Positions 22,560 to 25,723 of a stretch of 64,000 nt of DNA are shown here, piece after piece. Origin of the DNA: Deinococcales bacterium (GTDB taxonomy: Bacteria; Deinococcota; Deinococci; Deinococcales; JAAFIG01); NCBI GenBank assembly GCA_031414595.1, contig JANNVX010000064.1:1-64000 (forward strand), given 5' to 3'. The notes under the pieces are model-generated. The model saw nothing but the letters and a program-made list of their open reading frames with translations, was not told the origin of the DNA and did no database searches. The position numbers and the translations under genes are program-made. Numbering within the stretch: position 1 is the first letter of the stretch; each line of letters begins with the position of its first letter.

Positions 22560-23402
22560 TCAGACCCCACAACCCGAGACAAGACGTTGCACAAATTTCT
22601 TGCCATCCCATTGCACTGCAAAAGTAGCCGAGTCTTCGTAAATGGCTTCAAAGTACAACACCTCGAGTTTGCCATCGCCGTTTAAGTCTAGGACATTGAC
22701 CAAATCCCAAACATCGGGGTTGTTTTGCATTCCAGCCTCAATATCGGCATCAGTCGTGGTTTTTAAGTGGATTTCCTGACCCAAAGAAATAGTTTGGACT
22801 TTGCCAGCCACGATTTTACGCACCAACAGCAGACTGTAATCGCCTTTTTCGCCTCGAGCGCTTGGGAATAAACCACTGCGGTAGCCTCGAGTCGCCGCAA
22901 TAATAATTTCATCTTGTTTGTCGTTGTCAAGGTCAGTTTTAATCAGGCTGGTAATCTTCACTTCGGGGTTCTTAAGTCCTAATTTCTCGAGGTATTGGGA
23001 AACCACGGCTCGGTATGTGCCATTATCGTTAGACAATACGGTCACGGCTCGAGGACGAAGATTCCAAGTGGCGTTGGTGGCAATCACCCAGTTCTTTGCG
23101 GCGGGAACAGGATTTAATTTTACGCCGTAAGTTTCTTCGCACGGCACACCGTAGGATTCTTTGGCTGTGCCAACACTGGCGCTAGTGATTTTACCGCCCA
23201 TTGTCCAAAGCGAATTGTATTTCATGCCAGCCGGAGCAACGGCTTTTTTACCGTCTAACCAAGTTGAACCCGACACGCCGCCTAAGACTTCAAAAACATT
23301 TTCTGAAGTTATCGGCGGATAACCAACTAAAAAAGTGGCGCTATTTGGTGCAGCCGCCACACCCAAGGACAAAACAGCCAGTAATGGTAAGAGTTTTTTC
23401 AT
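22560..23402 (-). CDS. Secreted hypothetical protein with DxDxDG-like (FG-GAP/Ca-binding) motifs
   Basis: MKKLL signal peptide; DLDNDKQDEII and DLNGDGKLEV motifs. Confidence 0.7.
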   Translation of the reverse strand: MKKLLPLLAVLSLGVAAAPNSATFLVGYPPITSENVFEVLGGVSGSTWLDGKKAVAPAGMKYNSLWTMGGKITSASVGTAKESYGVPCEETYGVKLNPVPAAKNWVIATNATWNLRPRAVTVLSNDNGTYRAVVSQYLEKLGLKNPEVKITSLIKTDLDNDKQDEIIIAATRGYRSGLFPSARGEKGDYSLLLVRKIVAGKVQTISLGQEIHLKTTTDADIEAGMQNNPDVWDLVNVLDLNGDGKLEVLYFEAIYEDSATFAVQWDGKKFVQRLVSGCGV

Positions 23403-23423
23403 TACTTCAGCATACACGATTTT

Positions 23424-25025
23424 TTAATTCTGCTCGAGAATTATTTTGTCCTGTACCAAAATTCGGCGTGTGGCAATCGTCTCAAGTAAGCGCCTGTCAT
23501 GCGAAGCCAGTAACAATGTACCCGTATACTCGAGTAATAATTTCTCGAGAGCAGCAATTGCATCAGTATCCAGATTATTGGTGGGTTCATCCAAAATCAG
23601 CAATGAAGCTCGAGTGACCGATAACCGCGCTAAGGTTAAACGGGTGCGTTGCCCACCAGATAAAGTAGCAATGACTCGGGATGGTTCTTTGGGCAACCTT
23701 AAACTCGCCAGCAACGCATAGATTTCCTTGGTTTGCAAATGCGGATTAGCAGACAGCAGCGCCTCTTCAAGGGTGATGAATTCGTTGATTTCCTCAGTGT
23801 TCTGGGCTGCCCAGTAGACAGTCACATTCTGCCCGAAAGTCACATTGCCCGTAAACCCGAGTTGCCCTAGAATGGCTTTGATTAAGCTGCTCTTACCACC
23901 ACCATTTGCTCCGACCAACGCAACTTTTTCACCACGTCCAATAAATAAATTAACCTTCTCGAGAATTATTTTTTCATCACGCTGCACCGTCACACCCTCG
24001 AGCTTAAGAACTTCAAACGCACCGACTGGCACAGCATCCAACTGAATTTTGGTCAAAAAACCATCTTCAAAAGGCTTCTCGAGTTCGCCCATGTGTTCAA
24101 TGCGTTTCTCGAGTGCCAGCGCACGTTTGCCTTGCTTATGCGACGCTCGGTTCATCAAATGAAAGGCAGTGGTGGCATCACGGCTTCCCACTCGGTGCTT
24201 ATTTTCGCTTCTCGAGGCTTGGGCAATGGCGGCTTGGCGCTCAAGGGCTAATTGTTTGATTTTACGTTCATGATTTTCAAACGCCAGCAATTGGTTTTCT
24301 CGAATGGCTTTTTTAAGCGCCATTGCTTGGCTAAAATTCCCTTCGTACAAGCTGACTTTTTGCCGCTCGAGTTCATAACAACGCGTCACTGTCGCATCTA
24401 AAAAAGCCCTGTCGTGCGAAACAATCATAAAACCCGCGTCAGAAGCTAAAATCCAATGCTCAAGCCAAGTTAAACTGTCTAAATCCAAGTGATTGGTTGG
24501 TTCATCCAACAAGTAAAAATCGGCTGGCTGAATCAGTAACCGAGCCAGTAATGCGCGGCGTTCCTGCCCACCAGAAAGCGCGATACTCGAGCCTGAGCCT
24601 TCTAAACCCAGTCCAGCCAAGATTTCCTCAGCCCGAATTTCAAGGTCGTAGCCACCCGCAATTCTAAATTCTTCTTCTAGCAGTGCGTACTCGGTAAGAT
24701 GCTCAGGGCTTGGATTCTCGAGGGCGACTTGGGCTGCCTCGAGTTTATGTTTCAAATCTTTAAGCGCATCGGGCAACACCACATCACGCAGCGCACCTGT
24801 CTCGAGGGTCGTGCGTTGTGCGAGATACGCCACTCGCCCAGTCAATGTCACTGTGCCAGTATCAGGTGGCTCAAAACCAGCCAGAATTTTGAGCAGCGTG
24901 GTTTTACCACTGCCATTACGACCCAGCAGCGCAACCCGTTCGCCCATCTGTAACTCGAGGGCGACATCATCAAAAATTAAATTGTCTGCAAAGCGCTTTT
25001 GCGCTCCACGCATGATTAAGCTCAC
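23424..25025 (-). CDS. ABC-F ATPase, likely ribosome-protection (ARE-like) type
   Basis: Two ABC cassettes (GRNGSGKTT/LSGGQ/LDEPTNHLD and GANGGGKSS/LSGGQ/LDEPTNNLD), no TM, long basic linker; GTG 25025 after GGAGG. Confidence 0.85.
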   Translation of the reverse strand: MSLIMRGAQKRFADNLIFDDVALELQMGERVALLGRNGSGKTTLLKILAGFEPPDTGTVTLTGRVAYLAQRTTLETGALRDVVLPDALKDLKHKLEAAQVALENPSPEHLTEYALLEEEFRIAGGYDLEIRAEEILAGLGLEGSGSSIALSGGQERRALLARLLIQPADFYLLDEPTNHLDLDSLTWLEHWILASDAGFMIVSHDRAFLDATVTRCYELERQKVSLYEGNFSQAMALKKAIRENQLLAFENHERKIKQLALERQAAIAQASRSENKHRVGSRDATTAFHLMNRASHKQGKRALALEKRIEHMGELEKPFEDGFLTKIQLDAVPVGAFEVLKLEGVTVQRDEKIILEKVNLFIGRGEKVALVGANGGGKSSLIKAILGQLGFTGNVTFGQNVTVYWAAQNTEEINEFITLEEALLSANPHLQTKEIYALLASLRLPKEPSRVIATLSGGQRTRLTLARLSVTRASLLILDEPTNNLDTDAIAALEKLLLEYTGTLLLASHDRRLLETIATRRILVQDKIILEQN

Positions 25026-25070
25026 GTGAACCTCCAAGAAAAAAGGGTGAAGACCTCTTGCCTATGGTGA

Positions 25071-25088
25071 TTAACGCAAACGTGTCAT
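25071..25088 (-). promoter_or_regulatory. Leader peptide uORF MTRLR (candidate ribosome-stalling attenuator)
   Basis: AAAGGA RBS, 7 nt spacer, then ATG ACA CGT TTG CGT TAA, ending 45 nt upstream of the ABC-F start. Confidence 0.7.
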
Positions 25089-25228
25089 GCAGTAGTCCTT
25101 TGAAATAATTAAAGCCGTTGACTCGAGCCAATTCTCGAGGGAGTGGTTTAGATTAACCCAAAATGTGCAGTAAAATCATTACGAAAAATGGCGTATCTCT
25201 CACCCGGATTTTTGTTAGCATACGCGGC

Positions 25229-25723
25229 GTGAATCCGCTTGTTGGCATTATCATGGGCAGCCAATCCGACTTAGAAACTATGCAGCACACGGCGAATACC
25301 TTGCGTGACCTCGAGATACCTTTTGAAATGCGAATTGTTAGCGCTCATCGCACCCCAGATTTACTTTTTGAATACGCCAAAAGCGCCGAGGCTCGAGGGC
25401 TTGAAGTGATTATCGCGGGGGCAGGCGGCGCAGCACATTTACCCGGAATGGCAGCCAGTCAAACCGTACTGCCCGTACTTGGCGTACCCGTACAAAGTAA
25501 AGCCCTAAACGGCTTAGATAGCTTACTGAGCATTGTGCAAATGCCGGCTGGAATTCCAGTGGCAACGCTGGCGATTGGCAACGCTGGTGCTGTCAATGCG
25601 GCACTTTTAGCTGCCGCCATCCTAGGCAATAAATACCCAGAAACTCGAGAGAAGCTGCGTTCTTGGCGTGAAAAACAAACAAAAACAGTTCTCGAGAACA
25701 GCCAACTCGAGGGCAATTCATGA
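25229..25723 (+). CDS. purE: N5-CAIR mutase PurE
   Basis: [26 protein letters not shown] and [13 protein letters not shown] motifs; GTG start 7 nt after TAGCAT. Confidence 0.95.

Follow-up and report, generated by a model that had tools for sequence, protein, structure and literature searches.

The window analyzed here is a stretch of 64,000 nucleotides (nt) from a Deinococcales genome (assembly GCA_031414595.1, contig JANNVX010000064.1, positions 1 to 64,000), and our subject is the 5′ leader of a gene for an ABC-F ATPase that it encodes on the minus strand at 23424..25025. The leader contains a five-codon upstream open reading frame (uORF), MTRLR*, and we find that this mini-gene is real and conserved across the Deinococcus phylum, beyond chance. 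The end of the uORF is predicted to pair with the ABC-F start site in a conserved long-range helix, an arrangement in which a ribosome held on the uORF would open the start site of the gene. We propose that the leader is a uORF switch of the macrolide/ketolide type for a protective ABC-F, a reading to which we give a little less than an even chance.

The original prediction placed an AAAGGA ribosome-binding site and an MTRLR uORF on the minus strand, and reading the sequence confirms both at their coordinates. The uORF (ATG ACA CGT TTG CGT TAA; 25071..25088, minus strand) runs from its ATG at 25088-25086 to its TAA at 25073-25071 and sits 45 nt upstream of the GGAGG/GTG start region of the ABC-F gene. 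Its own Shine-Dalgarno (SD) sequence, AAAGGA (25096..25101, minus strand), lies 7 nt ahead of the ATG, and the predicted fold leaves it unpaired. The SD of the ABC-F gene, GGAGG (25031..25035, minus strand), lies 5 nt ahead of the GTG at 25025 that starts a frame of 533 codons plus stop with its last position at 23424; both the start and a G-rich SD are kept in orthologs. The domain make-up of the 533-residue protein, two Pfam ABC_tran matches plus ABC_tran_Xtn with no membrane domain, marks it as an ABC-F.

Conservation of the uORF in orthologs, on which the original prediction depended, holds throughout. A protein search of 41 related genomes yielded 19 full-length orthologs with 46-96% identity, and all 19 have the mini-ORF at the equivalent place. 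Searching 364 genomes of the phylum with a cut-off of E ≤ 1e-90, we found an ortholog in 130 of them, distributed by family as 13/18 genomes of f1 (the window's own genome excluded), 95/125 of f3 and 21/128 of f2; none was found in f4 (0/23), f5 (0/68) or f6 (0/1), nor in 30/125 of the f3 genomes. According to the names on the homologs, f3 comprises Deinococcus and Deinobacterium, and the Trueperaceae are among the remaining families, in agreement with the assignment of this DNA to a Deinococcota genome. The upstream 330 nt were taken for 107 further ortholog rows, and the 135 rows, less 8 partial matches and 1 stretch at a contig end, gave 126 leaders. Our uORF detector calls a start codon followed by 2-10 codons and a stop, with a purine-rich 5-mer (at least two Gs) 4-16 nt upstream. 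It finds such an SD-preceded ORF in 126/126 leaders, compared with 24.9 ± 4.5 (maximum 37) in 100 mononucleotide shuffles, and Arg occupies codon 2 or 3 in 100 of the 126, compared with 5.3 ± 2.1 (maximum 10) in the shuffles. The AAAGGA or GGAG-type motifs of the orthologs are equally spaced from the uORF start. Since the loci are relatives, the 126 are not independent trials; the leaders themselves diverge widely in sequence and in G+C content. The counts of peptides and structures below use a curated set of 121 leaders, in which the most downstream candidate was taken from each leader (the first in L130) and from which L119, L136, L163, L180 and L198 were excluded because the choice of uORF is ambiguous.

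Several observations bear on how these loci appear in public records. The ortholog closest to the window's, L002 (G005:C476:2360-3955; 96% identity), has a leader identical to that of the window and one in-frame TAA in its gene, and is either a recent pseudogene or an assembly error. The Deinococcus radiodurans protein NP_294198.1, as printed in the supplement of PMC6723617, starts about 100 residues upstream of the conserved MLRAREV... start, with a frame that spans the leader region, and several orthologs have long open frames upstream (up to 754 aa). In public annotation, the uORF may be concealed by starts that were called too far upstream. Within the window's own genome no other copy of the leader was found, and the weak BLAST matches fall mostly on its CTCGAG hairpin part.

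The peptide varies from family to family. In the window's family, with 14 leaders from five genera, the uORF encodes MTRLR nine times and otherwise MTRLRSSP, MTRRR, MRERR, MRLR or MTRYRC, so that all 14 contain R-x-R with L, R, E or Y as the middle residue. The 90 leaders of the Deinococcaceae include many three-residue forms (MRL in 19, MRN in 4, MRR in 3, MRW in 2, and MRF, MRH, MRA and MRM once each), six- to seven-codon forms such as MRLNLL, MRPLPL and MRPNLL, and also MTERR, MTDRR, MERARQ and MNSARQ. The 17 leaders of the third family mostly encode MRxxR (MRAAR, MRNAR, MRNHR, MRRNR, MRESR, MRVNR). A Met-Arg start is the common denominator of the sister-family uORFs. Across the curated set, Arg occupies codon 2 in 83 uORFs, codon 2 or 3 in 100 and any position in 114; Leu follows M-R in 30/83, and the last sense codon is Arg in 38/121. 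The uORFs are 2-9 codons long, with only 2-3 codons in 35/121. The Arg at codon 2 or 3 is encoded by CGT (41), CGC (52), AGA (6) and AGG (1), the start codon is TTG in 73 uORFs, ATG in 33 and GTG in 15, and L007 has the Leu codon CTG in place of TTG. The use of four Arg codons, the Leu synonym and the varied starts point to selection acting on the peptide and not on the RNA alone.

Some Deinococcus genomes carry diverged copies of the ABC-F gene (43-49% identity to the query), in three places in G070 and in two each in G069, G076 and G084. Each copy has its own leader and a different mini-peptide (leaders L163, L180, L189, L200, L205, L213 and L217). The second and third copies encode MPSRIR in three cases and, read by eye in L198 outside the curated set, MNSYRTR. 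The copy with MPSRIR*, an R-x-R followed by stop, coexists with a copy of the MR type. The pattern suggests diversification of sensor/factor pairs.

The leader RNA folds far better than its composition predicts: the 106-nt leader has a folding energy of -32.3 kcal/mol, compared with -21.3 ± 3.1 kcal/mol in 200 shuffles, none of which is as good (z -3.56). The minimum free energy (MFE) folds contain a long-range helix, P1. Its 5′ strand (25061..25081, minus strand) spans uORF codons 3-5 and the stop and runs 10 nt beyond it, the anti-SD AAUCACCA overlapping and following the stop; its 3′ strand (25020..25039, minus strand) covers the SD and spacer (UUCUUGGAGGUU), the GUG start and ABC-F codons 2-3. 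The segments [stop-12, stop+18) and [start-16, start+3), which represent the uORF end and the SD/start, share 6 or more pairs in 108/121 MFE folds, including 14/14 in the window's family, and a mean of 10.5 pairs over the 121 leaders, compared with 3.2 in shuffles. P1 begins within the uORF in 118/121 leaders, and its 5′ strand extends a median of 13-17 nt past the stop, a distance that a ribosome on the last codons could reach.

Two further lines of evidence indicate that the pairing itself is maintained. RNAalifold did not recover P1 from MAFFT alignments of 13 family leaders or of 55 Deinococcaceae leaders because the helix register shifts between subgroups, and we therefore used alignment-free tests. 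Pairing of each leader with its own SD region, as an alignment-free measure of covariation, is stronger than pairing with foreign SD regions (-13.58 versus -11.01 ± 0.26 kcal/mol; 0/2000 permutations as low), and the contrast persists between families. In 22 leaders, from the third family and deep Deinococcaceae genera, that could be aligned in register, 90.9% of the cells are paired, compared with 35-40% in slid registers. The helix in this alignment is CGCUGAC/GUCAGCG with an adjoining CUCC/GGAG hairpin; 10 cells have compensatory double changes, a number that 0/500 shuffles reach, and the covariation score is 0.233 versus 0.145. The folding of the leader thus bears out the original prediction in its general form: the ABC-F ribosome-binding site is masked by a conserved predicted structure, which a ribosome on the uORF would open. 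The specific pairing put forward there, CAAGAG (25060-25055) with TTCTTG (25040-35) beside the GGAGG, can form with one G-U pair; it is not the conserved hairpin, being the MFE fold just with a ribosome on uORF codon 5, and P1 is dominant instead.

Smaller hairpins accompany P1. The loop of P1 contains an inner hairpin, P2 (25041..25059, minus strand), in which AAGAGG pairs weakly with CCUUUU (25059-25054 with 25046-25041) across a 7-nt loop, followed by a U-rich run. P2 is not terminator-like in the window, where a window scan found no terminator-like site; the inner hairpin of another genus (L005) is terminator-like, with 8 pairs, 5 of them G-C, and a T-rich tail. At the 5′ side, CTCGAG, a 6-nt loop and CTCGAG form the stem-loop P0 (25122..25139, minus strand); the 54 nt upstream of the uORF SD fold at -10.3 kcal/mol (z -2.2). 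The leader folds of other families contain a hairpin at the equivalent place, for example CCAGG-UUU-CCUGG, and P0 is probably near the 5′ end of the transcript, as far as the folds can indicate. The two CTCGAG copies that build P0 (25139-25134 and 25127-25122) belong to a palindrome that is by far the commonest hexamer in the window, present in 350 copies in 64 kb compared with 14.5 expected from base composition. At the start site, the SD-proximal AGGUUY can pair with GAGYUU in codons 2-3 (25034-25020); this local hairpin is predicted in all 13 distinct family leaders (L003-L014 included), one of its pairs changes from G-U to C-G, and judging by these folds it could add a second, weaker mask over the start site. 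A search of 24700-25500 against Rfam at a permissive threshold gave only two chance-level matches (E 2.8 and 7.1).

We modeled a ribosome on the uORF of the window by making the RNA unavailable up to 15 nt past the first base of the P-site codon, a crude and purely thermodynamic treatment. The free leader has an energy of -24.1 kcal/mol and an SD that is unpaired with a probability of 0.14. With codon 1 or 2 in the P site, the energy rises to -13.9 or -13.2 kcal/mol and the probability stays at 0.14. With codon 3, 4 or 5 in the P site, the energy is -10.9, -9.6 or -9.0 kcal/mol and the SD is unpaired with a probability of 0.28, 0.32 or 0.29, respectively. The modeled geometry is suited to reporting a delay of the ribosome at the final uORF codons.

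According to the mechanism that we propose, the ABC-F mRNA would have the segment 25139-25020 as its 5′ leader, which would act as a translational attenuator under the control of a ribosome. At rest, P1 would hide the SD, the start codon and the first codons, and the ABC-F would be poorly translated. The uORF, with its exposed SD, would be translated, and a ribosome held on it would cover the 5′ strand of P1 and so free the ABC-F start site. On a macrolide- or ketolide-bound ribosome, arrest would be expected once Leu4 of M-T-R-L-R has reached the P site and Arg5 the A site. The ABC-F, with a linker of the length found in antibiotic resistance ABC-F proteins (ARE-ABCFs), would then occupy the E site and lift the inhibition by the drug, giving an intrinsic, inducible protection like that of VmlR, LsaA and CplR. 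We infer the translation of the uORF, its drug-dependent arrest, the identity of the inducer (a macrolide or ketolide being favored) and the protective activity of the protein. Transcription attenuation was considered as the main mechanism and rejected. The inner hairpin is not terminator-like in the window and no modeled ribosome position undoes it, and for these reasons we adopted translational attenuation; a contribution from termination or pausing is possible in the genus of L005.

The identity of the signal is argued from published arrest contexts. In the R-L-R arrest state of the macrolide-bound ribosome, Leu occupies the P site and Arg the A site; in MRLR an additional erythromycin-dependent arrest occurs at the first of the two Arg codons, provided that the next one encodes Leu, and an 'xRx' arrest at a C-terminal Arg is also cited (PMC12583479). 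By analogy, M-R-L, the commonest Deinococcus form, fits the first-Arg and xRx contexts. The known leader peptides of the macrolide-inducible genes msr(A), mef(E)/msr(D) and erm(D) are MTASMRLK, MTASMRLR and MTHSMRLR (PMC4335068), and MTRLR looks like a contracted form of them. The window's uORF shares with those of erm(D)/erm(K), msr(A) and mef(E)/msr(D) its shortness, a preceding SD, the MT start and the R-L-R end, and shares with Mef(E)L a stop directly after RLR (PMC4335068). Like the msr leaders, whose genes act by ribosome protection, it stands upstream of an ABC-F, whereas the others precede other resistance genes. One leader of the window's family, L012, encodes exactly MRLR*, the minimal peptide that was engineered in the laboratory (PMC12583479).

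The leader also differs from these systems. The window's uORF has just five codons, without the internal (A/H)SM, and the RNA around it is unrelated in sequence, with a single long-range helix that traps the SD in place of the multi-hairpin leaders of erm, msr and mef. Attenuation is transcriptional in mef(E)/msr(D) and erm(K), whereas for the window's leader we propose a translational form, and the protein scores 264 bits against an Msr model cut-off of 680. In architecture the leader resembles the chloramphenicol-responsive attenuators of cat-86 and cmlA, which likewise have one stem-loop that hides the ribosome-binding site, a 5′ arm that overlaps the leader ORF and no third or fourth segment. 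These differ in their inducer, in the length of their leaders (9 codons), in their arrest sequences and in the genes they regulate, which encode an acetyltransferase or an efflux protein.

The protein has the features of an active ABC-F with an unusually long linker. The Walker A, signature, Walker B and H-loop motifs of both nucleotide-binding domains (NBDs) are invariant in 68 orthologs, with the Walker B glutamates at E175 and E480. The interdomain linker is helical (residues ~231-337), and in an AlphaFold2 model with a mean pLDDT of 86.8 its helices at 231-270 and 284-312 are joined by a basic, low-confidence loop of 13 residues (271-283). From the NBD1 H-loop to the NBD2 Walker A there are 169 residues (169-171 in 10 family members). 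The same span measures 140 residues in EttA, 142 in both Escherichia coli Uup and OptrA, 148 in the Uup-like paralog of this genome and ~150 in two ABC-Fs from Bacillota. The long basic linker described in the original prediction is therefore a genuine feature; it exceeds those of EttA and Uup by 27-29 residues. Long linkers mark the ARE-ABCFs that reach the peptidyl transferase center (PTC) or the tunnel (PMC8196190). The NCBIfam models of Msr, Lsa, CplR and Sal align in one piece through the linker, whereas just parts of them match both paralogs. By features, the protein thus has two NBDs with a helical linker, intact motifs, an extended linker and a uORF/SD-helix leader from which inducibility is predicted; placement in a recognized subfamily (ARE1-8, NCBIfam models) was not obtained. 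Matches to plasmids in tblastn searches are all below 36% identity, and the gene is therefore not close to any plasmid-borne ABC-F.

Three other comparisons of the protein were set aside. The best NCBIfam match, NF000355 ('ribosomal protection-like ABC-F'), was discarded as ARE evidence: it matches E. coli and other control genomes too, and with 365-378 bits for each of the three ABC-F paralogs in this genome it does not discriminate. A search of the ESM Atlas with the linker alone gave a best score of 0.91 to an unnamed cluster and was uninformative. A scan of genome contigs for relatives was swamped by the universal DEPTNNLD motif and returned only ABC-Fs of other phyla with 28-37% identity.

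A number of results weigh against a macrolide switch for a protective ABC-F, the first group of which concerns the sensor. The macrolide motif that the original prediction recognized in RLR stands within the window's family and fails beyond it: the R-x-R form is specific to that family, with 6/107 leaders of the sister families containing it (1/17 in the third family, 5/90 in the Deinococcaceae). Given this rarity, the phylum-wide sensor is no +X+ motif, and since R-L-R is kept just in the window's family, the macrolide case rests on one family and on the published Arg contexts. No Arg at all is present in 7/121 curated uORFs. The terminal CGC/CGT-stop of many uORFs lies within P1, so part of the conservation of that Arg codon may be at the RNA level. 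The SD is freed just partly in our model (from 0.14 to ~0.3) because the weak hairpin between AGGUUC and codons 2-3 can re-form.

The second group concerns the protein. It reaches no curated ARE cut-off in NCBIfam (bits obtained/cut-off: Vga 278/725, Msr 264/680, producer 243/800, CplR 218/780, Sal 215/725, Lsa 213/750, OptrA 204/1450), and it reaches no housekeeping cut-off either (Uup 273/900, EttA 254/599 and 249/807, YbiT-type 248/762, YheS-type 216/917). Sequence matches in the PDB to Uup, YbiT, VmlR2 and EttA have like scores, with the housekeeping Uup and YbiT in the lead. A Foldseek search of the PDB returned only ABC-Fs as top matches, VmlR2 first and PoxtA, EttA, YbiT and Uup within one order of E-value, and at the level of the predicted model it gives no separation of ARE from non-ARE proteins. 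Linker length is no predictor of drug class (PMC8196190). A chromosomal gene that is inherited as widely within the phylum as this one could also encode a housekeeping factor. In the supplementary table of Murina et al. 2019 (PMC6723617), every Deinococcus-Thermus ABCF is listed as YdiF, among them D. radiodurans NP_294198.1, which by eye matches the family of the window's protein. YdiF is described there as a paraphyletic or polyphyletic group of sequences that could not be classified elsewhere (PMC6723617), and for that reason the label is not a functional assignment. The window's family has a long linker and a uORF in its leader, and by these two features it differs from its paralogs.

The same switch could instead respond to drugs of the PTC (lincosamides, pleuromutilins, streptogramin A and possibly phenicols or oxazolidinones), with ribosomes held at or just past the start codon and the ABC-F acting as a protection factor of the type that confers resistance to pleuromutilins, lincosamides and streptogramin A (PLSA). 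We regard this as unlikely, though well short of negligible. Induction that depends on a uORF is typical of ARE-ABCFs, and very short uORFs are the published pattern of the PLSA type: CplR has MR[I/M], VmlR has MIN, VmlR2 has MK[L/Q] and LsaA has MAGN, and the cplR leader responds to lincomycin and retapamulin (PMC10201436). The Deinococcus uORFs MRL*, MRN* and MRW* resemble the 3-4 codon uORFs of cplR (MRI in Clostridioides difficile), vmlR, vmlR2 and lsaA, and the phylum consensus, M-R-x in 2-9 codons with Arg2 in 83/121 and 2-3 codons in 35/121, is near the CplR form. In both groups the SD of the ABC-F is sequestered and the gene is chromosomal and vertically inherited. A ribosome on codon 1 or 2 already strips much of P1 in the window (from -24.1 to -13.9 or -13.2 kcal/mol), and one genus has a terminator-like inner hairpin, as in cplR.

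Against an inducer of this kind, the SD stays hidden (0.14) with the ribosome on codon 1 or 2 and is freed from codon 3 on, the strict R-x-R of the window's family (14/14) has no known role with PTC drugs, and we found no alternative pairing that undoes the terminator-like hairpin. The RNA also differs from that of cplR, which has a true intrinsic terminator containing the SD, with its uORF inside a hairpin further upstream. In the present leaders the anti-SD directly behind the uORF stop pairs with the SD over 45-110 nt, and no terminator was detected in the window. CplR is moreover a member of ARE1, whereas the window's protein is unclassified.

A drug-independent feedback is, in our judgment, about as doubtful. 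Under it, the protein would be a housekeeping ABC-F (like EttA, Uup/YfmR or YbiT/YkpA) that rescues ribosomes in intrinsically slow contexts, early in elongation or rich in Arg. A shortage of the factor would leave ribosomes lingering on the M-R... or R-x-R test peptide, P1 would open and more factor would be made. Non-ARE ABCFs are reported to resolve stalling on problematic motifs (PMC11381351), and the protein is binned with YdiF and not with the ARE group (PMC6723617). Its best solved-structure matches by sequence are Uup and YbiT, and the gene is chromosomal in 130/364 genomes (f1 13/18, f3 95/125). The same survey shows the gene to be dispensable, for it was not found in f4 (0/23), f5 (0/68) and 30/125 f3 genomes. 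Some genomes have two or three diverged copies, each with its own uORF, which is more like an accessory, diversifying function, and the linker extends 27-29 residues beyond that of EttA or Uup. It also counts against this feedback that we know of no housekeeping ABC-F under such uORF control.

Two remaining explanations appear very improbable. The uORF might sense the supply of arginine through charged tRNA-Arg, like classical amino-acid leader peptides, and the Arg codons are indeed its most conserved feature (at least one in 114/121 uORFs, two of five in the window), but there are usually one or two of them and no run, the regulated gene encodes a ribosome-binding ATPase and not an arginine gene, and the neighboring genes change between genera. 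The mini-ORF might equally be an untranslated by-product of a conserved RNA structure, such as a protein site or a thermosensor-like SD trap, which its position partly inside P1 would allow through RNA-level constraint, but this hardly accounts for an SD-like purine run 4-16 nt ahead of the start in 126/126 leaders compared with ~25 in shuffles, for the interchange of ATG, TTG and GTG starts, for Arg kept through both CGY and AGR codons, or for a frame length that stays at 2-9 codons despite sequence turnover.

The genes that neighbor the ABC-F differ from genus to genus. Upstream in the window, on the opposite strand, are purE and purK. The listed purE frame (25163-25723, plus strand) starts 26 codons ahead of its AIR-carboxylase domain match; because the Pfam match starts at residue 27, the divergent intergenic region is probably ~200 nt, and the real purE start is probably near 25229, which would give space for divergent promoters. 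Downstream, 6 nt past the ABC-F stop, starts a 285-codon gene (22560-23417, minus strand) that has no Pfam family and whose N terminus resembles a signal peptide; ccmA and ccmB come after it. The 285-codon gene is next to the ABC-F in 4/20 loci, all within the window's genus, and therefore lies outside any conserved unit. One of the genome's two other ABC-F paralogs, on contig C67, starts ~30 nt after the end of the preceding ORF, which leaves no space for such a leader there.

A simple consensus scan called no sigma-70-like promoter on the leader strand, and TAATCT at 25155-25150 is a by-eye reading of a promoter element that the scan did not call. In L005-L013, a common block ~60-100 nt upstream of the uORF contains TTGACG, a 17-nt spacer and (C/T)AAAAC and, judged by its sequence, looks like the promoter of that genus; the simple scan did not call this block either, and the window has no equivalent of it.

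In the full-text literature, screened by title and the start of the abstract with subscription journals not covered, we found no paper on such an ABC-F leader in Deinococcus. The proposed mechanism is of a known kind, an ARE-ABCF controlled by a uORF; what is new is its occurrence with this protein family and this leader RNA, and in this phylum. More broadly, and more tentatively than for the window's leader itself, the Deinococcota 'YdiF' ABC-Fs may include an unrecognized subfamily of inducible, intrinsic ARE proteins in a diderm phylum outside the Bacillota and Actinomycetota, whose sensors are the minimal arrest peptides MRL, MRLR and MTRLR. If so, these would be natural forms of peptides so far known just as laboratory truncations of ErmDL, and the leader would provide a natural instance of a drug-sensing arrest peptide at its shortest possible length. 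The variation over 120 genomes (MRL, MRN, MRW, MRPLPL, MRxxR, MTRLR, MPSRIR) is a ready mutational series for N-terminal stalling contexts. Should the switch prove drug-independent, it would be, to our knowledge, the first uORF-based homeostat of a housekeeping ABC-F. A subfamily of this kind would also supply a sensor peptide and a protection factor fully homologous to the ribosomes of Deinococcus and Thermus, the structural workhorses of macrolide studies. If the prediction holds, the phylum would possess a widespread inducible ribosome-protection factor that resistance catalogs and ABC-F classifications have missed, currently annotated as 'ABC-F family' or 'ribosomal protection-like' and binned in print as YdiF.

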